Sequence record: PZ386972.1
Strand: one strand, 5' to 3'
Source: a phage
DNA: 64,000 bases
Within the stretch, counting starts at the first letter, position 1, and every line of letters begins with the position of its first letter. Shown one piece after another: positions 3,087 to 51,837 of this stretch. Below the pieces are notes generated by a model that saw nothing but the letters and a program-made list of their open reading frames with translations, was not told the origin of the DNA and ran no database searches. Position numbers and translations under genes: made by a program.

Positions 3087-3562
3087 TTGATTATAGTGGT
3101 CTAAAGACCATTTTTGGTGAAAAACTGCCAGAATCTCATATCTTCTTTGCTACGGTTGCTGCGCATAAATATGTTCCTAGCTACGCTTTTCTGCGTAGAG
3201 AACTAGGACTTTCATCTGCGCATACTAACCGTAAAGTATGGAAGAAATTTGTAGAGACCTATGGTAAAGCAGTTCCTCCTGCTCCACCATTAACTCTTTC
3301 TAAGGATTTAACTGCTAGCATGTCCGTTGAAGAGGGAGCAGCGTTAACCCTTTCTGTTACTGCAACCGGTGGTACTGGTCCATATACTTATGCATGGACT
3401 AAAGATGGTTCTCCTATTCCAGAGGCTTCAGGAGCTACCTATACTAAGCCTACAGCAGCTACTGGGGATTCTGGAGCTTATAAAGTAACTGTAACAGATA
3501 GTAAGAAAGTTAGTAAACCTTCCACTACATGTACTGTGACAGTAAACCCAAGTGGAGGCTAA
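3083..3562 (+). CDS. head decoration protein with C-terminal Ig-like domain (pb10-like)
   Basis: ATGA start/stop overlap with portal; C-terminal LTLSVTATGGTGPYTYAWTKDGSPI...YKVTVTD is a typical phage-surface Ig-like fold signature. Confidence 0.7.
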   Translation: MIDYSGLKTIFGEKLPESHIFFATVAAHKYVPSYAFLRRELGLSSAHTNRKVWKKFVETYGKAVPPAPPLTLSKDLTASMSVEEGAALTLSVTATGGTGPYTYAWTKDGSPIPEASGATYTKPTAATGDSGAYKVTVTDSKKVSKPSTTCTVTVNPSGG

Positions 3563-3565
3563 TAA

Positions 3566-4198
3566 ATGACACAAGCTGCTATTGACTATAACAAGTTAAA
3601 ATCAGCACCGGTTCATTTAGATGCTTATATTAAATCTATTGATAGCGAATCCAAAGAGGGTGTTGTAAAAATACGTGGATTCGCTAATACAATTAGTAAA
3701 GATCGCGCTGGTGATGTAATCCCTGCTTCGGCATGGAAAACATCTAATGCACTTGCTAACTACATGAAAAACCCGATTATTCTTTTCGGACACGACCATC
3801 GTCGTCCAATCGGCAAGTGTATTGATCTTAACCCTACTGAAATGGGTCTCGAAATCGAATGCGAGATCTATGAAAGTTCTGATCCGGCTATCTTTTCACT
3901 AATTAAAAACGGTGTACTGAAAACTTTTAGTATCGGATTCCGCTGCCTAGATGCAGAGTGGGATGAAGCTACTGATATATTTATTATTAAAGATTTAGAA
4001 CTATACGAAGTTTCGGTAGTTTCTGTACCTTGTAATCAGGACTCGACCTTCAATCTCGCTAAGAGCATGAATGGTCATGATTATACTGAATGGCGTAAAT
4101 CTTTTACTGCAATAAGTTCTAAAGCTGTCCCAGCTCAAGAACGTAATCTTTCTGAACTAGAAAAACTTGCGATAGCTTTAGGCTACGTTAAAGAATAA
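3566..4198 (+). CDS. prohead maturation protease
   Basis: 210-aa ORF between decoration and capsid genes; size and position of an HK97-type prohead protease. Confidence 0.75.
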   Translation: MTQAAIDYNKLKSAPVHLDAYIKSIDSESKEGVVKIRGFANTISKDRAGDVIPASAWKTSNALANYMKNPIILFGHDHRRPIGKCIDLNPTEMGLEIECEIYESSDPAIFSLIKNGVLKTFSIGFRCLDAEWDEATDIFIIKDLELYEVSVVSVPCNQDSTFNLAKSMNGHDYTEWRKSFTAISSKAVPAQERNLSELEKLAIALGYVKE

Positions 4199-4215: not shown

Positions 4216-5592
4216 ATGACTATTGATATTAATAAGCTGAAAGAAGAACTTGGTCTGGGTGATCTGGCTAAATCTCTGGAAGGTCTGACCGCTGCTCAGA
4301 AAGCTCAGGAAGCTGAACGTATGCGTAAAGAGCAGGAAGAAAAAGAACTGGCTCGTATGAATGATCTGGTTTCTAAAGCAGTTGGCGAAGATCGTCAGAA
4401 GCTAGAAGAAGCTCTGGAACTGGTTAAATCCCTGGATGAAAAATCCAAGAAGAGCGCAGAACTGTTTGCACAGACTGTAGAAAAACAGCAGGAAACTATT
4501 GTTGGTCTTCAGGACGAAATCAAATCTCTGCTGGCAGCTCGTGAAGGGCGTTCCTTCGTCGGTGATAGCGTAGCTAAAGCACTGTACGGTACTCAAGAAA
4601 ACTTTGAAGACGAAGTGGAGAAACTGGTTCTTCTGTCCTACGTGATGGAAAAAGGTGTATTTGATACCGAACATGGCCAGAGACACCTGAAAACTGTAAA
4701 CCAGTCCTCCTCAGTAGAAGTTTCTAGTGAAAGCTATGAAACTATTTTCTCCCAGCGTATTATTCGTGACCTGCAGAAAGAACTAGTAGTTGGTGCTCTG
4801 TTTGAAGAACTGCCAATGTCCAGCAAAATTCTTACTATGCTGGTTGAACCAGATGCTGGTAAAGCTACTTGGGTAGATGCCGCTACTTACGGTACTGATG
4901 CTACTACTGGTAATGAAGTTAAAGGCGCTCTTAAAGAGATCAGTTTCAAAACTTACAAACTGGCTGCTAAATCCTTCATTACTGATGAAACTGAAGAAGA
5001 TGCAATCTTCTCCTTGCTGCCACTGCTTCGTAAGCGTCTGATTGAAGCACATGCTGTTTCTATCGAAGAAGCTTTCATGACTGGTGATGGTTCTGGTAAG
5101 CCGAAAGGTCTGCTGACTCTTGCTAGTGAAGACAGTGCTAAAGTTATTACTGAAGCTAAAGCTGATGGTTCTGTTCTGGTAACTGCTAAAACTATCTCTA
5201 AACTGCGTCGTAAATTGGGCCGTCATGGTCTGAAACTGAGCAAACTGGTACTGATCGTATCTATGGATGCTTATTACGATCTGCTGGAAGATGAAGAATG
5301 GCAGGATGTTGCCCAGGTTGGTAATGATGCTGTTAAACTGCAAGGTCAGGTTGGTCGTATTTACGGTCTGCCGGTTGTAGTTTCTGAGTACTTCCCGGCT
5401 AAAGCTACCTCCGCAGAGTTCGCAGTTATTGTTTACAAAGATAACTTCGTAATGCCACGTCAGCGTGCTGTTACTGTTGAACGTGAGCGCCAAGCTGGTA
5501 AACAGCGTGATGCGTACTACGTTACTCAGCGTGTTAACCTGCAACGTTACTTTAATAATGGCGTTGTATCTGGTGCTTACGCTGCATCTTAA
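4216..5592 (+). CDS. major capsid protein precursor with N-terminal coiled-coil scaffold-like domain (pb8-like)
   Basis: 458-aa ORF; charged coiled-coil N-terminal ~150 aa then capsid-like body; followed by strong terminator. Confidence 0.85.
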   Translation: MTIDINKLKEELGLGDLAKSLEGLTAAQKAQEAERMRKEQEEKELARMNDLVSKAVGEDRQKLEEALELVKSLDEKSKKSAELFAQTVEKQQETIVGLQDEIKSLLAAREGRSFVGDSVAKALYGTQENFEDEVEKLVLLSYVMEKGVFDTEHGQRHLKTVNQSSSVEVSSESYETIFSQRIIRDLQKELVVGALFEELPMSSKILTMLVEPDAGKATWVDAATYGTDATTGNEVKGALKEISFKTYKLAAKSFITDETEEDAIFSLLPLLRKRLIEAHAVSIEEAFMTGDGSGKPKGLLTLASEDSAKVITEAKADGSVLVTAKTISKLRRKLGRHGLKLSKLVLIVSMDAYYDLLEDEEWQDVAQVGNDAVKLQGQVGRIYGLPVVVSEYFPAKATSAEFAVIVYKDNFVMPRQRAVTVERERQAGKQRDAYYVTQRVNLQRYFNNGVVSGAYAAS

Positions 5593-43614: not shown

Positions 43615-46378
43615 CTAGCTCTGCCATTGCTTCATCATGCATATGTTTCTCCTCATCAGTCATAAACTTATATGGAATTGGCATACACTCGATTTTACAA
43701 TAAGTTCTGTACCAGTCTACAATATTCTCCGTGTTCATATCCTTACCAATACCCATCATACCAAGATACATTCTTGCATATTTTGGGTTAGCACTCTGAC
43801 CTGTTTTAAGGAAGAAATCTTTCTTTTTACCTTTCAAAGCTTCTATGAATGGTTTGATAGTGACATTTGAACACTTCTTAATATCCTCCCAGAACATCTC
43901 GTGCATCTTATGAAAGAATGCAGCTCTATCATTCGGTTTATCTTTGATATATTGTTCAACATGCTCAACCGTTACATCTTTAATAGACTCAAGATGATAA
44001 TAGCGAACAAGAAGTAGTTTAGCTTCATACGCATCTGCATGGCGGGGGGCACAATAATCAGGAGTTGAGTACAAAATGGCTTTGATTCGCTCTTCTGTAT
44101 ACTCTTTACCTGCACCTTCGATAGTTCCCCAGCTTTCACTGAAAATATCAATAGTTGCACCCTGATCAAGCAAGTAATAACGTAAAGTACTAGTATAGTT
44201 CCTAGACTCCAGCTCCCTGCGACGTGCGTATAATTGCTGTGCTAACTCCAGCCAACCCTCATCAATGTTATATTGTTCAGAACCTGCGGAAAATCCACTC
44301 GTAGATTTATCAATAAAATAATAAATGTTCTGAGCGCCACGGTCGCGCCTGATTGCTTGAAAACGCATGTTTGGCGCTTGGTTACTAGTTCTAGTAATAA
44401 CGAATACGTTATCAAAATAGTTGAAGTCAACACCACTCGTTACGGATGGACTACATAATAAGCAATCAATTTGTTGGTCAATTAGCTCATTAGTTGTGTA
44501 ATCCAGAATACGTCGAATATCCACATCAGACGTAGAGTTTGAGTGGATTTCCTTAACTAACGCACCCGTATTACGACGCAATGCCATGCCCTTCTCATTC
44601 AGTTCATCCGGACCACAGTCAGATACTAGGATAGATTTCTCACCCATCTCTAGGGAAGTCTGAAGTGCAACCCAAATACTGGATTCATCAGGGAACTCAT
44701 AAGCATGAGCTTTTGACAGCATTTTACGATGATGATTATAAAATGCAACCGGTTTATCAAACTCAATCAAAGAACCATATGCTTCAATTGTTTCTGCACT
44801 AATATCCCCATCAGATAATATAATGATTTTTGCAGTTGCAAGAATATCCCGAAGAACCTGAATGCACTCGCGACGTTGTTTAACAACCGGGGCGAATAAT
44901 AGGTCATTCATTACTGCATCACATTCATCAATAAAGATTGCATCAATTTGACCAATAAAACTCTTGAACTTATGCAAAGAGTGAATAGTTGTGGACATAC
45001 GGTCAATAGCACCACGCTTAAAATTAAGCATATCTACAGACTTATCATATTGTCCTGCGCTAAATTTCTTAGCGTTTGAAGATACCAGCGCTCTAGTATT
45101 TGTAACTGCTAAGAAATTACCTTTAATAACTCCTGAATCTAACCAACGCACAACCGCCGTGGTTTTACCTGTACCTAGACTTGCTTTTACAAAAGTCATA
45201 TAACCTTCTGGCGGTACAGTATTTAATTTCAAAAAGTTATCAGTTTCTAGGGAATTAGTTTCTAGCTTTTTAAGTGGAATACCTTTTAAAACATCAGGTA
45301 TATCACGTTTAGAATTATTAACAAACGCTTTCAGAGCCTGTTTACGACCGTTATTAAAGTAATCTTGAATATTACGACTATTATCTTTAGTTGCAATATA
45401 TTCTGATAAGGCTGGACGGATTTCTTTTTCTAGCCATGCAAAATCAACACCATCCTCTAAAGCTCTGTGATAGAGTTTAGGTATGATACGTAGATACACT
45501 CCATCCTCAGCTTCTTCTAGTTCGCTGATAGTTTCCTCTACTTTATCAGAGGCAGCTTTTTTACCTTTAATTTGATCGAGTAAAGAGTAAAACTCCTCCT
45601 TAAACTCACCTCTAGTTGTTTCATAGTCAACCAGATTATTAGGTAAATTTACTTTAGAACCCTTAACAAATACCAGACGTGAAGCACCCTCCGCCTTAAA
45701 CGGATCTACTATACCATCAGTAAATAACGGATCTGCAAAATAATGGAGCTGTACGGAAGAGTAATAAGCTAAGTCGGCAATATCAAAGCCATACTTTTGT
45801 CTACTACTTTCGTTGATAGATGTAAATAAGAATTTGATTTGACCCTGAGTTACTTTAACATTAGATTCTAGTATTAGGTGCATTCGGATACCTGGTTTTA
45901 GCCCAGCCGAAGACGATGCATGAGCGATAAACCCTGCATCGAGAGGAAACATGTCCTCACTAATACTATTTAACATTCTAATAATATGTCGAGCCATGCC
46001 AACAAGATCAAACTTGTTACAACCACCTGTATCTACAATACCATCCACGTCCATTGCAATTATATGACTTGGATTAGATACATTAAAGTTGCCCTTCTTA
46101 CGCCGCACATTATTTTTAGGTGCAAGACATCGACCTCGTACCGCAACGATATGAGGATCAGACGTTAAACGTCTCATAAGAGGGAGCATTTCTACTAGGG
46201 TTTGAGGATCAACTTCATCAATTACATCAAACTTGAAGGGCATTGAAGCTGGTTTACCTTCAGAATGCTTTGAGGAAAATCTTTTAGCAAAAAGATAGTC
46301 TTCTGCTTTAACTTCTCGCCAAATGCCTGTGGCTAAATCGCGATGAAATCCTGCATGACCTTGTAGGATTGAGAACAC
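43589..46378 (-). CDS. primase-polymerase (AEP-like) domain fused to P-loop ATPase/helicase; candidate replication initiator
   Basis: N-terminal IIAMDVDG, GFIAHASSSAG and YFADPL resemble AEP motifs I-III; central Walker A LGTGKTT and Walker B IFIDECD; start placed at GTG after AGGAG, the six-frame ORF extends to 46456 with TTG. Confidence 0.55.
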   Translation of the reverse strand: MFSILQGHAGFHRDLATGIWREVKAEDYLFAKRFSSKHSEGKPASMPFKFDVIDEVDPQTLVEMLPLMRRLTSDPHIVAVRGRCLAPKNNVRRKKGNFNVSNPSHIIAMDVDGIVDTGGCNKFDLVGMARHIIRMLNSISEDMFPLDAGFIAHASSSAGLKPGIRMHLILESNVKVTQGQIKFLFTSINESSRQKYGFDIADLAYYSSVQLHYFADPLFTDGIVDPFKAEGASRLVFVKGSKVNLPNNLVDYETTRGEFKEEFYSLLDQIKGKKAASDKVEETISELEEAEDGVYLRIIPKLYHRALEDGVDFAWLEKEIRPALSEYIATKDNSRNIQDYFNNGRKQALKAFVNNSKRDIPDVLKGIPLKKLETNSLETDNFLKLNTVPPEGYMTFVKASLGTGKTTAVVRWLDSGVIKGNFLAVTNTRALVSSNAKKFSAGQYDKSVDMLNFKRGAIDRMSTTIHSLHKFKSFIGQIDAIFIDECDAVMNDLLFAPVVKQRRECIQVLRDILATAKIIILSDGDISAETIEAYGSLIEFDKPVAFYNHHRKMLSKAHAYEFPDESSIWVALQTSLEMGEKSILVSDCGPDELNEKGMALRRNTGALVKEIHSNSTSDVDIRRILDYTTNELIDQQIDCLLCSPSVTSGVDFNYFDNVFVITRTSNQAPNMRFQAIRRDRGAQNIYYFIDKSTSGFSAGSEQYNIDEGWLELAQQLYARRRELESRNYTSTLRYYLLDQGATIDIFSESWGTIEGAGKEYTEERIKAILYSTPDYCAPRHADAYEAKLLLVRYYHLESIKDVTVEHVEQYIKDKPNDRAAFFHKMHEMFWEDIKKCSNVTIKPFIEALKGKKKDFFLKTGQSANPKYARMYLGMMGIGKDMNTENIVDWYRTYCKIECMPIPYKFMTDEEKHMHDEAMAELGARNDSEE

Positions 46379-46877
46379 AACAATACTCCTGTGTTGGAAA
46401 TGAAATAAGTTTTCTTTAGGACTATTCAGAAAGAATAGAACAACTGTTACTGTCAATTTCTCAACAAATTAATTGCAAATACTGAAGTGGGGTGGCAACT
46501 TCCACTTTCACGCTGCGCTGCTGCTTTGCTATATCGCACAAATCCTTGAGGATGGCCGCTAAGCCAGATTTGCTCACCTAATGCTTCATATACTAGCTCA
46601 TACTAGATGCAATATAACTTACAGAATCACGTCTCGGAGTTTTTCACTCCTCCCGTCTCACTTCACAACCACCTCTATCTAGGTTGCTTCGAGGCCTTAC
46701 CAGGGTTCCTACGGGACGCAGATCGCTAAGTATTCTATTAACTATTTGTTTAAAAACTAACACGTAACAGTTAAAACAACCCTTAATGTGGCAGCCTAAC
46801 TGTTCCGTATCGCGGATTGTAAACAAGAAAAATTAGCAAAATCAATTTTTACTAATGTCTCTCAATTCAATATAAAT

Positions 46878-46906
46878 ATTATACCAAGATTTTGGGCATC
46901 ATGCAA
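46878..46906 (-). promoter_or_regulatory. early promoter (TTGCAT, 17 bp, TATAAT) driving the long leader
   Basis: read on minus strand. Confidence 0.55.
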
Positions 46907-46945
46907 GTAAAATTTTCCGGATGGTGCTATCATTGGTCTTAAGTA

Positions 46946-46974
46946 CGGATAAAACCGAGCCAAAATGACTCGGT
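46946..46974 (-). terminator. rho-independent terminator ending the nrdD-Sir2 operon
   Basis: ACCGAG / CTCGGT stem followed by TTTTATCC on minus strand. Confidence 0.6.
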
Positions 46975-46997
46975 AATCAGAGTTCAGCTAATAAAAA

Positions 46998-47390
46998 TCA
47001 TTCATCATTTAATCCTGGAACATAGATCCCAACACGATTTAATTGTTCTTTAGCTTCTGCGAGAATATCTGGAGTGTACTCCCAAATATCGTCTTCCACC
47101 TGTAAAAGATGGGAAGAACAACCATCATGCGGCACACGACATATGGCCAAACCACGTGGATGGAACAAAGAGAAATTTAGGGCAACAATTAAACCCATAG
47201 CAGACAACTCATTCCAATCCAACTCCCATTCCCCCGCGTAGCCGGATAGGAAAACACCAACACAGGGATCATCTATTTGCTGCTCCGGAAAAGTGAAGGA
47301 GGCTTGTCTTACCCCCAACCAACGTTGTAGCAGCTTCTCCGCACGTTTCACCAAACTAGGATCAATCTGACGCCAATATACTTGTTCCAT
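46998..47390 (-). CDS. hypothetical protein, tandem paralog A
   Basis: 130 aa; shares PCVG ... GEWELDWNELS.MGL..ALN..LF.P ... VPGL pattern with 47400-47828. Confidence 0.45.
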   Translation of the reverse strand: MEQVYWRQIDPSLVKRAEKLLQRWLGVRQASFTFPEQQIDDPCVGVFLSGYAGEWELDWNELSAMGLIVALNFSLFHPRGLAICRVPHDGCSSHLLQVEDDIWEYTPDILAEAKEQLNRVGIYVPGLNDE

Positions 47391-47399
47391 TCTGCCTCC

Positions 47400-47828
47400 T
47401 TAAGCAGTTAAACCTGGGATCATATACCCGAAACGTCGAAGTTTCTGAATCCCATCATTTACTTCTTCCGGTGAGTAAGACCAACCGTAACGTTCATTAA
47501 CCTGAAAACCAGGAGATTCACTAGTTTTATAGTTAACAACAAGGCGATGCTTAGCAGGCATAAACAGCTTATAGTTTAACGCAAAAACTAAGCCCATTTC
47601 ATCTAACTCTTTCCAGCCGACAATTTCTTCAAGACCCTCCTCTACCTGAACAATTAAACCAATACAGGGAGCCTCATCAATATCATCTTTAAAAGCAAAG
47701 GAGATTTCGTTATTCTCACACCATATTTTCAAAGAGTTAATAGCCTCATTATATAGGCTAGCTGGGAGAGTACGCCAAAAGTTAACCAAAATTGGGTTAG
47801 CTTCTTTAGAGAATACATTATTGAACAT
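47400..47828 (-). CDS. hypothetical protein, tandem paralog B
   Basis: 142 aa; paralogous to 46998-47390. Confidence 0.45.
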   Translation of the reverse strand: MFNNVFSKEANPILVNFWRTLPASLYNEAINSLKIWCENNEISFAFKDDIDEAPCIGLIVQVEEGLEEIVGWKELDEMGLVFALNYKLFMPAKHRLVVNYKTSESPGFQVNERYGWSYSPEEVNDGIQKLRRFGYMIPGLTA

Positions 47829-47830
47829 AT

Positions 47831-48337
47831 TTACACCTTAAATTGCTGTAAGGATTTACACATTTCAAGATCCGGACTAAATTCTAGCATATAGCTAACA
47901 GCTTTTAAATCTTGAAGATTTATCCCAGTCCTACCGTTGACTATAACCGTTGGATACTGATACATCATAGCACCCGCATCATCAAGCACACACCAATGTT
48001 TGAGCTTATGCTTTTCAACGAAGCGAAGAACAGAATTACCCCTAGATAATCCACCTCCAGTAAAATCCGTTGTACCAAGAAAGCGATCGATAAGACCTAA
48101 TCCGGTCATAATCTGAACGTTCTCCATCTCATTTCTAACAGAGAACCAAGATGATACCCCAACAATCATTATTGGGGAAGGACGAATAAAGTCCTGAAAA
48201 GCCTTGAGAAGTGGTTTGAAAACCCAGTCACTTCCAAAGAAAATCTTTTCATCATCAGGTGCATGATGGTGGGAGATGCTCGAATTGAGCACCCCATCAA
48301 TATCTAGAAAAATAATTGGAGTATTACTTATTTCCAT
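47831..48337 (-). CDS. HAD-superfamily phosphatase (putative nucleotidase)
   Basis: 168 aa; N-terminal IIFLDIDGVLN matches HAD motif I. Confidence 0.55.
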   Translation of the reverse strand: MEISNTPIIFLDIDGVLNSSISHHHAPDDEKIFFGSDWVFKPLLKAFQDFIRPSPIMIVGVSSWFSVRNEMENVQIMTGLGLIDRFLGTTDFTGGGLSRGNSVLRFVEKHKLKHWCVLDDAGAMMYQYPTVIVNGRTGINLQDLKAVSYMLEFSPDLEMCKSLQQFKV

Positions 48338-48506
48338 TTTTGTTCCTTTCTAAGAACGTATCATACTCAACCGTATCAACATATATAACACCATAGTCAT
48401 CGGATTTATAGTCCATTTCCCACAGCTCACAGCGATAGCACCAACTACCATCAGCCCATACAAATATATCATCGGGATGTGTATAAACAGATTTAACTAT
48501 GGACAT
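48324..48506 (-). CDS. small hypothetical protein (WCYR-motif paralog 1)
   Basis: 60 aa; DIFVWADGSWCYR shared with next ORF. Confidence 0.35.
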   Translation of the reverse strand: MSIVKSVYTHPDDIFVWADGSWCYRCELWEMDYKSDDYGVIYVDTVEYDTFLERNKNGNK

Positions 48507-48682
48507 ACCTGTTTCTCCTCATCTCCAGAGGAGAACCACATATTATCCGTAGTATAGATAATTTTATATGTGTATCCCAACCGTTTTCTTACACTAGGAA
48601 ACCTGTAGGCAAACCTATAACACCAAGTGCCAGACTCAGTTATAAAAATATCCCATTCATTATTTCTTGCTTCTCGACACAT
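48497..48682 (-). CDS. small hypothetical protein (WCYR-motif paralog 2)
   Basis: 61 aa; DIFITESGTWCYR. Confidence 0.35.
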   Translation of the reverse strand: MCREARNNEWDIFITESGTWCYRFAYRFPSVRKRLGYTYKIIYTTDNMWFSSGDEEKQVCP

Positions 48683-49478
48683 AAGGTCTACCCTCTAAAT
48701 GAGCTTCTACACGAGCAATAAAATCAGGATCACTGAAAGCATCTACCGCACCCTTACTCCAATAAGGGATACTACGTTCTTCCAGCTGGTACATCTCACT
48801 ACGAGTCATACCCTGATAGCCTGGCTCCGCTGCTAGGGCACTATCATAGTAGTTAACTACCATAAATTTCGCAGCAGTCCTATTAAGAACAGGAAATAAT
48901 TCCCAGTAGAAGTTAATTACTTGGTTAGAGCAACCAACCACAACGATCATATCTTGGCTGGTAATACCATCAAAAACATTGTACATTTCTGCATATGCTG
49001 GAGCATGCTCTCCAAAGAAGATTACATTAGGTTTAACCCATTTATAATCATCTGGATCAATAGAAGTATATCCTACATCAATAACCAGTTTATTGCTACT
49101 ATTGTAGCTATCAGCTACAACAACCTCTTTTAAATATCCGTGAATGTGCAGAATGTCACTATGTGGAACGCCAGCACGCTCAATAAGGTCATCGACGTTG
49201 GTAGTCAAGTTTACTACTTGACCTGGATATTGTTTATACCATTCACCAATACGCAAATGCGCAAGATTGGGTTCAACAGTTTTTAGCTCTTCACGACGCT
49301 TGTTGTAAAACATATGGGTTTTATGATAAAAATTACCACGAAAGGCATGAATATTACATACTTCTTCTAGATCATAATCATCCCACAATGCTTTACCACT
49401 AGCAGTATCAGTACGAAAAGCTCGTACACCACTTTCAACACTCAAACCTGCACCGCTAATAATAATTAATCTACGCAT
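48660..49478 (-). CDS. Sir2-like (sirtuin family) NAD-dependent deacylase / ADP-ribosyltransferase, zinc-ribbon cysteines absent
   Basis: 272 aa; SGAGLSVESGVRAFR, TTNVDDL, HIHG catalytic His, VVVGCS align to sirtuin motifs; no CxxC pairs in the zinc-module region. Confidence 0.7.
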   Translation of the reverse strand: MRRLIIISGAGLSVESGVRAFRTDTASGKALWDDYDLEEVCNIHAFRGNFYHKTHMFYNKRREELKTVEPNLAHLRIGEWYKQYPGQVVNLTTNVDDLIERAGVPHSDILHIHGYLKEVVVADSYNSSNKLVIDVGYTSIDPDDYKWVKPNVIFFGEHAPAYAEMYNVFDGITSQDMIVVVGCSNQVINFYWELFPVLNRTAAKFMVVNYYDSALAAEPGYQGMTRSEMYQLEERSIPYWSKGAVDAFSDPDFIARVEAHLEGRPYVSRSKK

Positions 49479-49692
49479 TTTTCACCTGTTCTCTGAAGTT
49501 TTGCCCAATACTGTCTAATAGCTCAGCTAATTCTTTATTGCCTTTCTCCGTTAAGGTATTAGCAATAACTTCTAGCATAGTAGCGCAGGATTCAACACCG
49601 TCCTTATAGCCAGCTTCCCATTGCTGCATTAATGCGTTTTCCAAAGCAGCGTTTAAACCCTTATCTGGTAGCATCGGCTTCGAGAATGCCAT
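49471..49692 (-). CDS. hypothetical protein
   Basis: 73-aa ORF. Confidence 0.35.
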   Translation of the reverse strand: MAFSKPMLPDKGLNAALENALMQQWEAGYKDGVESCATMLEVIANTLTEKGNKELAELLDSIGQNFREQVKNA

Positions 49693-49879
49693 AAAGTTTC
49701 TCCTCTAGTTCCATAACACGATTTTCATAAGAGGCACGCAACTTTTCAATTGCCAGCGCACGCACTGTAACCTCATTAGAGTTAATAGCTAATTGGGCCA
49801 GATCTTCTGTTTCCATACGTCCGTTGTAAATTAAGCGATATTTAAGATGTTTTACATTCTTCATAGTTTCTCCTCTCAA
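49661..49879 (-). CDS. hypothetical protein
   Basis: 72-aa ORF downstream of promoter 49892-49920 with GAGAGGAGAAA RBS. Confidence 0.4.
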   Translation of the reverse strand: MRGETMKNVKHLKYRLIYNGRMETEDLAQLAINSNEVTVRALAIEKLRASYENRVMELEEKLYGILEADATR

Positions 49880-49891
49880 ATTTATAAATCA

Positions 49892-49920
49892 ATTATACAT
49901 AAGTTTTAGCTCGAAAGCAA
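49892..49920 (-). promoter_or_regulatory. early promoter (TTGCTT, 17 bp, TATAAT)
   Basis: read on minus strand. Confidence 0.6.
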
Positions 49921-49955
49921 ATAAAATAAAAGCCAGGTCGACTAGCAACCCGGCT
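49921..49955 (-). terminator. hairpin terminator after nrdD
   Basis: AGCCAGGT / ACCCGGCT imperfect stem followed by TTTTATTTTAT on minus strand. Confidence 0.5.
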
Positions 49956-49962
49956 GATTAGC

Positions 49963-51837
49963 TTATTTAGCTCGAATATCCTGATGTTTCACCCTACCCA
50001 TAACTTCATGTTGTTTGCCGGGGTTAAATGGACGAGCACCCGGATTTCCAAGATACCCACAAACTCGACGAGTTACTTCAAGAGTTTCTGGGTCATGATT
50101 ACCACAGATAGGGCACTTAAATCCATCTTCGGATGCTATTGTTTCACCTAAGAATCCACATTTACCACAAGAATCTACTGGAGTATTAATACCGAAGTAA
50201 TGAACCTTACTAGCAGCATAATTAATAACCCATTCGAGTGCATCTGGGAATCGTTTCATATCCGGTAGTTCTACATAGGAAATACACCCACCAGAAGCAA
50301 TCGGAGTAAAGTTAGATTCATAATCAAATTTCACGTTAGGAGCAACTTTACGTTCTACATCAAGGTGATGCGAGTTAGTATAGTATCCTTTGGACAGAAT
50401 ATCTTCATGCTCCGGGAAATATTCACGATCTAGACGACAAAAACGGTCACATAGGGACTCTGATGGTGTAGCATACAGGCTATAACCTAACTTAGTTTCT
50501 TCCTTCTTCTGATCTACCCTATCCCGCATGTACTGCAGTACACGCTGAACAAACTTGATGCAGGTCTCGGACATTGTGTCTATATCTTTGCCAAACATGA
50601 ACTGTAGCATTTCATGGCAACCAATATACCCTAGAGATACAGAAGCACGGTTATAGAAATGATCGAATACGTATTCATCAGGCTCCAAGCGCAGTCCAAA
50701 GGCTCCTGACATATAGAGGATGGGTGCAGCTTTAGCTTGAATGTATTTTAAGCGATCAACTCTCCACTCCAATGCTTTTAACGCTGTATCCACACGTAGC
50801 TCAAGCAAATCAAAGAATAGGTCAATATTTCCTTCAGCTTCGATAGCAATTCTAGGCAAGTTTACAGAAACAACACCTAAGTTATTACGACCGGCAGTTT
50901 CACCATCTTCTGTAGCAGCTAGGAATGAACGGCAGCCCATAGAAACTTTGTAGTCTCCAGTAACTTCTACAACTTTGTCATAGCTGATATAATCTGGATA
51001 CATACGTTCAGCAGTACATTTCATAGCTAACTTCTTGATGTCATAATTAACATCTCCTGGTTTCATATTTACGCCATCACGAAGCACAAATACCAGTTTC
51101 GGGAAGATAGCTGTACGTTTATTGATACCTAAACCATCCATGCGTACTTTCAGTATTGCTTTCTGTACTAGACGTGCTTCCCAAGAAGTTCCTAGACCAA
51201 AACCAAAGGTAATAAATGGACTCTGACCATTAGAGTTGAACATCGTATTGATTTCATACTCTAGACCCTGACAAGCATCATAGACTTCTTTTTCAGTCAT
51301 CTCCGTAGCCATTACTGATGCTTTGGCTTCATCCTTAGTCCAACGTTTTGCAAAGGCATGATTTTTGTCATAGGATTTACGAACATAAGGAGCTAATACC
51401 TCATCTAATCGGTCTACAGAAGTACCACCATACTGATGGGAGCTAACCTGTGTGATAATCTGAGCTGTAATAGCCGCCGCAGTAGTAATAGAGTTTGGAG
51501 TACTAATTTCAGCATTACCAACCTTCATACCATTCTTCAACATATCTTCCAGAGCTACCAGACAACAATTAGTCATGCCTAATGCAGCATAATCAGCATC
51601 ATGGAAATGAATATCCCCAATCATATGAGCATTTCGAATCTGAATTGGCATTTCTTCTAGAATCAGATACTTACTCAATTCACCTGCAAGCATATCCCTC
51701 TGTGTAGGGAAACGTTCTGAGGGTTTATTGGCATTATTAAACAGCAGCTCTTCATCTGCTGACCCTTCGATAATCTCTTTGCAGTTTCTAATTAACGCCT
51801 GCATTTCTTTATACTTTAGTTCTTCATTGCGATTCAT
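49963..51837 (-). CDS. nrdD: anaerobic ribonucleoside-triphosphate reductase (class III, glycyl radical)
   Basis: 624 aa; C-terminal RVCGYLG glycyl-radical motif and CxxC zinc ribbon (CGKCG ... CPICG). Confidence 0.9.
   Translation of the reverse strand: MNRNEELKYKEMQALIRNCKEIIEGSADEELLFNNANKPSERFPTQRDMLAGELSKYLILEEMPIQIRNAHMIGDIHFHDADYAALGMTNCCLVALEDMLKNGMKVGNAEISTPNSITTAAAITAQIITQVSSHQYGGTSVDRLDEVLAPYVRKSYDKNHAFAKRWTKDEAKASVMATEMTEKEVYDACQGLEYEINTMFNSNGQSPFITFGFGLGTSWEARLVQKAILKVRMDGLGINKRTAIFPKLVFVLRDGVNMKPGDVNYDIKKLAMKCTAERMYPDYISYDKVVEVTGDYKVSMGCRSFLAATEDGETAGRNNLGVVSVNLPRIAIEAEGNIDLFFDLLELRVDTALKALEWRVDRLKYIQAKAAPILYMSGAFGLRLEPDEYVFDHFYNRASVSLGYIGCHEMLQFMFGKDIDTMSETCIKFVQRVLQYMRDRVDQKKEETKLGYSLYATPSESLCDRFCRLDREYFPEHEDILSKGYYTNSHHLDVERKVAPNVKFDYESNFTPIASGGCISYVELPDMKRFPDALEWVINYAASKVHYFGINTPVDSCGKCGFLGETIASEDGFKCPICGNHDPETLEVTRRVCGYLGNPGARPFNPGKQHEVMGRVKHQDIRAK

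Follow-up and report, generated by a model that had tools for sequence, protein, structure and literature searches.

A conserved block of five early genes at the distal end of the nrdD-Sir2 transcription unit of a T5-like phage

Gene content of the block

We analysed a 64,000-nucleotide (nt) stretch of phage DNA (sequence record PZ386972.1; hereafter the window), in which five minus-strand open reading frames (ORFs) are packed back-to-back at positions 46998 to 48682, with neighbouring ORFs overlapping by 23, 10 or 14 nt or standing 2 or 9 nt apart; both GC skew and the ORF map point to this strand. In the order of transcription, the ORFs encode a 61-amino-acid (aa) protein (48497..48682), a 60-aa protein (48324..48506), a 168-aa phosphatase of the HAD superfamily (47831..48337) and two DUF7415 proteins of 142 aa (47400..47828) and 130 aa (46998..47390). 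These are the orthologues of T5.103, T5.104, T5.105, T5.106 and T5.107 of phage T5, with which they share 90%, 98%, 99% (98.8% for the HAD protein), 93% and 94% identity, respectively. An earlier description made from the letters and an ORF list, without database searches (the sequence-only reading), had reported two tandem pairs of small genes flanking a HAD-motif phosphatase, and all five ORFs, their outer coordinates and the quoted motifs proved exact. In T5 itself (NC_005859, 57243-58927), the order, lengths and overlaps of the genes and the positions of the terminator and next promoter are all alike, and nothing of substance differs. The whole region shares 98% DNA identity with Salmonella phage LmqsSP1 (genus Tequintavirus) and was matched by 451 phage records, nearly all of them T5-like.

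On its upstream side, the 61-aa ORF overlaps the 3' end of the Sir2-family gene (T5.102 orthologue; 48660..49478, minus strand; PF02146, E = 2e-24). Further upstream on the same strand lies nrdD (T5.099; 49963-51837), which is in one-to-one orthology with the T5 reference and has a consensus promoter upstream and a terminator-like hairpin downstream. On the other side of the block, a hairpin with a T-run, ACCGAGTCATTTTGGCTCGGTTTT (46951..46974, minus strand), was read from the sequence at the place where NC_005859 annotates a rho-independent terminator after T5.107; a simple terminator scan skipped it because its T-run is shorter than the scan's rule allows. Beyond this hairpin come a promoter-like TTGCAT-17 nt-TATAAT (46878..46906, minus strand), which was also read from the sequence and matches an annotated T5 promoter, a leader of about 420 nt and the origin-binding helicase gene T5.108. 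The promoter belongs to this next unit and is a unit boundary, outside the five-gene block. These terminator and promoter boundaries, together with the promoter upstream of nrdD, show that the five genes form the distal half of the early nrdD-Sir2 transcription unit, closed by the hairpin at 46951-46974, in agreement with the position assigned to them in the sequence-only reading.

The protein families, which had been called unrecognisable, are in fact catalogued, as DUF7415 and HAD_SAK_2 in Pfam and as PHROGs 2502, 5116 and 1818. Searches of NCBIfam and PADLOC gave nothing informative for the five proteins, and Pfam and NCBIfam yielded no ribonucleotide reductase (RNR)-accessory family for either DUF7415 protein or either small protein. 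The T5.105 orthologue matched PF18143 (HAD_SAK_2) with 73 bits against a cut-off of 27.5 (E = 4e-20), over profile positions 1-138 of 139. In an alignment of T5-like sequences with homologues from T4-like phages of Aeromonas and Proteus (29-34% identity), the motifs LDIDGVLN, SSW and LDD were invariant, as were D12, D14, S62, S63, T93-G94-G95-G96, R99, D119 and D120; R105 was invariant as well, and R99 or R105 may occupy the Lys/Arg position of motif III. HAD superfamily phosphomonoesterases act through an aspartyl-phosphate intermediate. Judged by its catalytic motifs, T5.105 is predicted to be a Mg-dependent phosphomonoesterase of the HAD_SAK_2 family, and its length of 168 aa suggests little or no cap domain. 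Sequence and profile searches found no solved relative of this protein. Like other HAD_SAK_2 phosphatases and the HAD domain of T4 polynucleotide kinase, T5.105 is a small HAD protein with DxDGV, SSW and DD motifs; unlike those systems, it is standalone, no kinase, ligase or HD domain being fused to it, it lacks RNA-repair neighbours in T5-like phages, and it carries an invariant TGGGxSR loop. The label 'Sir2 NAD-dependent deacetylase', which the gene widely carries by way of phrog_18062 and the T5 RefSeq entry, is wrong because the protein is a HAD protein. A functional link between the HAD protein and Sir2 was considered and set aside, since in Sugarlandvirus and Hongcheonvirus Sir2 is present without the HAD gene.

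Conservation, transcription and turnover of the small genes

All five genes are under purifying selection relative to T5, with ratios of nonsynonymous to synonymous substitution rates (dN/dS) of 0.02 for the HAD gene, 0.03 for the 60-aa gene, 0.07 for the 142-aa gene, 0.13 for the 130-aa gene and 0.16 for the 61-aa gene. In a comparison with the Epseptimavirus phage bastian, which covered the HAD and the two DUF7415 genes, the HAD protein was 91% identical and the DUF7415 proteins 73%, with dN/dS values of 0.06-0.17; the comparison genes nrdD and Sir2 gave 0.02 and 0.18, respectively. Over both comparisons, dN/dS was 0.02-0.06 for the HAD gene, which is constrained to the same degree as nrdD, and 0.07-0.17 for the DUF7415 genes (0.13-0.17 for the 130-aa gene). 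Gene order is the same in Tequintavirus and Epseptimavirus, and the block is near-universal in Markadamsvirinae, with about 440 phage records.

Transcription of these genes could be followed in RNA-seq data from the Tequintavirus Bas33 taken 20 min post infection (PMC13250531 Dataset S1). The orthologues bas33_0051 to bas33_0054 were transcribed, at 1386/1790, 755/868, 576/631 and 173/155 transcripts per million (TPM), respectively, compared with 744/648 for nrdD and 881/984 for Sir2; the highest values (1386-1790) belong to the orthologue of the 130-aa gene, and that of the HAD gene reached 576-631. When infection was blocked after first-step transfer, all of these values fell to about 1 or less in the same dataset. 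The block is transcribed together with nrdD after second-step DNA transfer. Bas33 has no T5.103 orthologue, and the transcription evidence covers the other four of the five genes (TPM 155-1790 against 648-744 for nrdD). The five ORFs are thus real early genes, expressed (four of them as judged from the Bas33 orthologues) and under constraint. The sequence-only reading had seen in the tandem pairs the mark of a fast-evolving host-interaction locus; the dN/dS values of 0.02-0.17 and transcription at nrdD-like levels show instead that the HAD gene and the DUF7415 pair are conserved genes, not fast-evolving ones.

The products of the two small genes both matched phrog_5116 (E = 2e-22 for the 61-aa and 6e-30 for the 60-aa protein), a family that may itself include T5.103-type sequences, but their paralogy is weak in pairwise comparison, which gave only one high-scoring segment pair of 13 aa (E = 2e-5). 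The 60-aa protein, with the core DDIhVWPDGSWCYRxELxEhxWKSDDYxVh, is a canonical member of an unnamed small-protein family. Its roughly 60 clusters share the conserved hairpin VWPDGSWCYR and a KSDDY motif and are found in Markadamsvirinae, Sugarlandvirus, Erwinia Kolesnikvirus phages and a few alphaproteobacterial elements. T5.104 is thereby placed in a family of small beta-hairpin proteins; its structure model is of moderate confidence, and no structural neighbour was found for it. The 61-aa protein keeps only the N-terminal hairpin motif, DIFxxxxGxWCYR, and is without the KSDDY motif, and T5.103 is present in just 33 phage records. Two further members of the 60-aa family were noted. In Klebsiella phage IME260, an unannotated homologous ORF (3437-3601 of the locus examined) lies immediately after Sir2, and in a Mesorhizobium contig a homologue (5001-5186) lies near genes for a DUF2958 protein, a 1448-aa AAA_34/Helicase_C_4 protein and a DUF7146/Toprim_3 protein. 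We read the Mesorhizobium neighbours as genes of a conjugative element, resembling an integrative and conjugative element (ICE), in which case the 60-aa family would also travel with conjugative elements.

The origin of T5.103 can be traced in an alignment with Bas33 and bastian, both of which lack a 157-base-pair (bp) insertion present at the 3' end of Sir2 in the window (48500-48700, minus strand). The frameshift caused by the insertion ends Sir2 early (at …VSRSKK), and the new frame opens, out of frame, inside the end of Sir2, includes a diverged version of the hairpin motif and terminates at the stop codon that Sir2 used ancestrally; the C-terminus of the 61-aa protein, …KQVCP, parallels that of Bas33 Sir2, …KQICP. 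T5.103 thus looks like a young ORF born by insertion and containing a partial copy of the small-gene motif, not a simple tandem duplicate.

The small genes may also be lost. In Salmonella phage FGS017 (locus L022, 700-830), a deletion between 10-bp direct repeats, TGGTGTTATA, a sequence that occurs in both small genes, has fused T5.103 and T5.104; the fused ORF contains an in-frame stop too, and nothing is annotated between Sir2 and the HAD gene. A metagenomic protein, P0090, is a similar T5.103/T5.104 hybrid, and Epseptimavirus has, in place of the second small gene, an unrelated hydrophobic ORF of 61 aa that we read as membrane-spanning. This pattern of presence and absence, together with the breakage in FGS017, shows that the small genes are dispensable, at least in some natural phages. 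Variation in copy number across T5-like phages, as anticipated from the sequence, is real but limited to the small genes, the HAD gene and the DUF7415 pair being near-universal. The term 'accessory cassette' likewise suits only part of the locus: most of the block is core to Markadamsvirinae, and accessory behaviour is clear for T5.103 alone and holds to some extent for T5.104.

It could be argued that the small ORFs are not genes and that their paralogy is a matter of chance, since the similarity of the 61- and 60-aa proteins spans 13 residues only, T5.103 came from a frame-shifting insertion and FGS017 has both small genes broken. However, dN/dS is far under 1 in all five ORFs, conserved orthologues number in the hundreds, structures could be modelled with high or moderate confidence, Bas33 transcribes orthologues of four of the five and the 142- and 130-aa proteins resemble each other with E = 9e-20. 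We regard this explanation as very improbable overall and as already refuted for four of the five ORFs.

An old and asymmetric DUF7415 pair

The 142- and 130-aa proteins share 32% identity over 125 aa (BLASTP, E = 9e-20) and both matched PF24187 (DUF7415; E = 5e-36, 123 bits and E = 6e-31, 107 bits, respectively, against a cut-off of 27) as well as phrog_2502, so that the pairwise statistics bear out the proposal, made from shared motifs, that they are true paralogues. When 1.84 billion representative proteins were searched exhaustively with a profile, just 60 clusters of DUF7415 relatives were recovered, about 25 of which consist of full-length two-domain proteins of about 130 aa, while the remainder match the C-terminal domain alone. 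The motif common to this domain, IDWNELSxxGLIxxINxEILHPxGLA...G.S.G...DDxVWEY (its end also written DDxxWEY), is shared by the Demerecviridae proteins and those of T4-like and P2-like phages. Among the relatives, standalone C-domains of 60-90 aa and fusions predominate. The Demerecviridae proteins differ in having an additional N-terminal domain of about 55 aa and, unlike the T4-like and P2-like relatives, in being encoded as a tandem pair, one member of which has a degenerate motif. DUF7415 is an alpha/beta family confined to phages and mobile elements; the 142-aa protein gave a confident AlphaFold2 model (predicted local distance difference test 92.9, predicted template modelling score 0.85) with the topology beta-alpha-beta-beta-beta / alpha-alpha-beta-beta-alpha. 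In several records the DUF7415 genes are mislabelled 'tail tube protein' or 'exonuclease'.

The 53-residue Pfam model of DUF7415 matched both halves of the proteins (60-72 bits for the N-terminal and 51-54 bits for the C-terminal halves; 53.7 and 50.9 for the C-terminal halves alone), and an internal tandem repeat was considered. BLAST of the halves found nothing, hhalign of the N- and C-terminal sub-alignments gave a probability of 2.4%, and a profile built from standalone C-domains gave the N-terminal halves about 0 bits. As none of these three independent tests found homology between the halves, the repeat was not accepted. The Pfam PF24187 seed may mix two different domains. A metagenomic protein of 718 aa (P0030), a long string of exact tandem repeats (13 matched stretches) whose unit of about 53 aa matches the C-terminal part of the DUF7415 profile, is almost certainly an assembly artefact.

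The two paralogues have diverged to different extents. The canonical C-domain motif (DWNELS..GL...N...HP.GLA) is complete in the 130-aa protein (DWNELSxMGL...FHPRGLA) and only partial in the divergent 142-aa protein (GWKELDEMGL...FMPAKHR, with FHPxGLA degenerate), and the standalone-C-domain profile gave 68.6 bits for the former and 28.5 bits for the latter. In a neighbour-joining tree, a clade of the 130-aa type, with FHPxGLA intact, stood apart from a clade of the 142-aa type, with the motif degenerate. Klebsiella Sugarlandvirus IME260 carries one gene of each type, and Pectobacterium phage DU_PP_V carries a lone gene of the 130-aa type. Since both paralogue clades are present in Sugarlandvirus and in Markadamsvirinae, the DUF7415 duplication is old, predating the split of the genera, with both copies retained and with asymmetric divergence, and is not a recent expansion. 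The asymmetry would fit a canonical subunit working with a degenerate one. In the same IME260 locus (3587-3989), gp118 is annotated with 95 aa, and its upstream extension yields a 133-aa DUF7415 protein of the 142-aa type.

Genomic context and possible roles

In three groups of Demerecviridae, DUF7415 genes are always the last of the nrdD-Sir2 block, right before the origin-binding helicase gene. Elsewhere, a 72-aa DUF7415 gene with the C-domain only lies between nrdD and nrdG and overlaps both in the T4-like Jiaodavirus, the gene lies two genes downstream of the Nudix gene nudE in Pseudotevenvirus, and it directly follows rnlA (RNA ligase 1) in T4-like Aeromonas phages. We also took the nearest flanking ORFs above a length cut-off (at least 80 aa for the Nudix count) at 80 DUF7415 loci from IMG/VR. 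Most frequent upstream were GPA (13), Nudix (8), RNA ligase 1 (3), NrdD (2) and the class I RNR large subunit (2), and most frequent downstream GPA (15), D12 methylase (9), GmrSD_N (8), DUF3850 (3), NrdG (2) and NrdB (2), so that the P2-type replication initiator GPA adjoins DUF7415 in 28 of the 80 loci. Two metagenomic phage contigs have the order nrdA-DUF7415-nrdB, and in a P4-like element a DUF7415 relative lies two short genes downstream of a Toprim primase. Thymidylate kinase, DUF3850/ASCH and an N-terminal domain that we read as probably MazG-like (in protein P0075) are fusion partners of DUF7415. These arrangements suggest a theme that recurs in several independent lineages, namely deoxynucleotide synthesis and replication initiation. 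Orf91 of phage P2, in the equivalent slot after gene A, was considered as a further DUF7415 member and ruled out, as it is a DUF3850 protein.

HAD homologues outside the T5-like phages were found mainly in T4-like phages of Aeromonas, Proteus and Providencia, where they lie beside td, two genes upstream of the dCTP pyrophosphatase gene or two genes downstream of dexA (near dexA/dda). At 60 diverse non-T5 phage loci from IMG/VR, the 105 neighbours of the HAD homologues included thymidylate synthase (3), cREC_REC (2), dUTPase (1) and Nudix (1), and on genomic context we lean towards a nucleotide as the substrate of T5.105. A linkage of the HAD and DUF7415 genes beyond the T5-like phages was looked for and not accepted: in Aeh1 the two genes are four apart, and no DUF7415 appeared among the 25 commonest families of HAD neighbours.

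The HAD gene also invites another explanation, in which the HAD_SAK_2 protein, helped by its neighbours, removes the 3'-phosphate or 2',3'-cyclic phosphate left on RNA (tRNA) by host anticodon nucleases, and so would protect phage tRNA-dependent translation. Pfam defines HAD_SAK_2 as the HAD domain of 'Swiss Army Knife' RNA repair proteins, some depositors name T5.105 orthologues 'RNA repair protein', the two cREC neighbours carry a domain for processing cyclic phosphates, and DUF7415 directly follows RNA ligase 1 in Aeromonas phages, with a tRNA nucleotidyltransferase gene nearby. However, there is no RNA ligase or polynucleotide kinase in the block or its flanks (about 43.6-52 kb of the window and the corresponding part of T5), few of the HAD neighbours are RNA-repair partners, with no ligase or kinase among the 25 commonest families at the 60 non-T5 loci, and the T4-like homologues lie beside td, the dCTPase gene or dexA, not pnk/rnl. 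We therefore consider such end-healing improbable.

The occurrence of DUF7415 relatives near RNR genes and replication initiators, and in fusions with nucleotide enzymes, led us to a working model in which the block serves nucleotide supply or DNA replication, not host-range warfare. The identity and conservation of the genes are near-certain; the mechanism we infer. The HAD phosphomonoesterase would trim either a nucleotide or the phosphate on the end of a nucleic acid; the DUF7415 proteins would have no enzymatic activity and would bind or regulate a protein of nucleotide metabolism or replication, with T5.106 and T5.107 probably pairing as a heteromer, one subunit canonical and the other degenerate, as their motifs suggest; and the small WCYR proteins would be dispensable modulators. 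We put forward this combination of a phosphatase and a non-enzymatic heteromer in a nucleotide-supply or replication accessory role only tentatively, although we prefer it to the others discussed here. Several points weigh against it. The DUF7415 context is guilt by association, as early regions abound in nucleotide and replication genes anyway, and no Pfam match backs the MazG-like reading of P0075. The DUF7415 model found no neighbour among solved structures that would hint at binding or catalysis, and full-text literature searches gave nothing on DUF7415 or T5.102-T5.107. For the HAD protein, no partner dominates among the 105 neighbours, and the name of its Pfam family implies RNA-end repair, not nucleotide pools.

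The small genes and the confinement of these families to mobile DNA are also consistent with counter-defence or host takeover, in which the WCYR and DUF7415 proteins would inhibit host or immune proteins and the HAD protein would degrade a phosphorylated immune signal or substrate. The genes are all small, early and confined to phages and mobile elements; T5.103 and T5.104 vary by presence, absence and decay; the Mesorhizobium homologue of the 60-aa protein lies within a region read as ICE-like; and the DUF7415 slot of P2-like phages adjoins the tin/old position. On the other hand, none of the five proteins matched a PADLOC defence-system model with E of 0.1 or better, the high conservation and low dN/dS of the HAD and DUF7415 genes are not what arms-race genes typically show, and the DUF7415 pair has been stably kept since before the genera split. 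We judge a counter-defence function to be unlikely, albeit the most serious of the competing explanations.

Within the nucleotide-supply model, a narrower proposal is that DUF7415 represents a new class of accessory factor for deoxynucleotide supply, acting, for example, as a small RNR-binding adaptor or regulator or as a coupler of dNTP enzymes to the replication initiator, with T5.106 and T5.107 as its heteromeric form. Such a role would explain the insertions between nrdD and nrdG and between nrdA and nrdB, the membership in the nrdD operon of Demerecviridae, the fusions with thymidylate kinase and the probable MazG-like domain and the adjacency to initiators, but in so specific a form we hold it to be a long shot. 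A functional analogy may be drawn with another T5 phosphatase, Dmp, a pre-early 5'-dNMP phosphatase with a known substrate that is encoded on the first-step-transfer DNA and reshapes nucleotide pools (preprint 10.64898/2026.04.02.716235). The likeness of T5.105 to Dmp would be one of function alone, and T5.105, unlike Dmp, is neither pre-early nor on the first-step-transfer DNA.

The surroundings of the block are more variable. The mosaic slot of the operon is the interval between nrdD and Sir2, upstream of the five genes (49471-49879, minus strand), which contains two small ORFs by comparison with the T5 reference; the two to four small ORFs found there differ between T5, SCF, Bas33 and bastian, and a 73-aa ORF in this interval has no T5 orthologue (best match, 39% over 31 aa). 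NrdD is 624 aa in the window, LmqsSP1 and bastian and is annotated with 574 aa in T5 (NC_005859), reflecting either a difference in start-site annotation or an N-terminal difference. Although nrdD is present, tblastn with the NrdG of KP179 detected no gene for this activase across the 64-kb window; presumably the phage uses the host activase, or nrdG falls outside the window. Between the promoter and the start of T5.108, the untranslated leader (46457-46877, minus strand; about 420 nt) differs in length among relatives, with an extra ORF of about 195 nt in LmqsSP1 and a gap of about 885 bp in Bas33; its folding energy is just mildly below that of shuffled sequences (z = -1.94), and neither it nor the rest of 46300-50000 gave a match in an Rfam scan.

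The block consists of ordinary, already catalogued and conserved T5 early genes. What is added here is that T5.105 is a HAD protein, predicted to be a phosphatase, and not Sir2, that the DUF7415 proteins are neither tail tube proteins nor exonucleases, that the DUF7415 pair is ancient and asymmetric, that DUF7415 genes recur beside RNR and replication genes, and that T5.103 looks to have been born of a 157-bp insertion. No function has been assigned to this near-universal set of five genes, although T5 is one of the classical model phages. If the DUF7415 pair does modulate dNTP supply, this would bear on how nucleotide metabolism is organised in large lytic phages and also on the defence systems that sense phage nucleotide enzymes.

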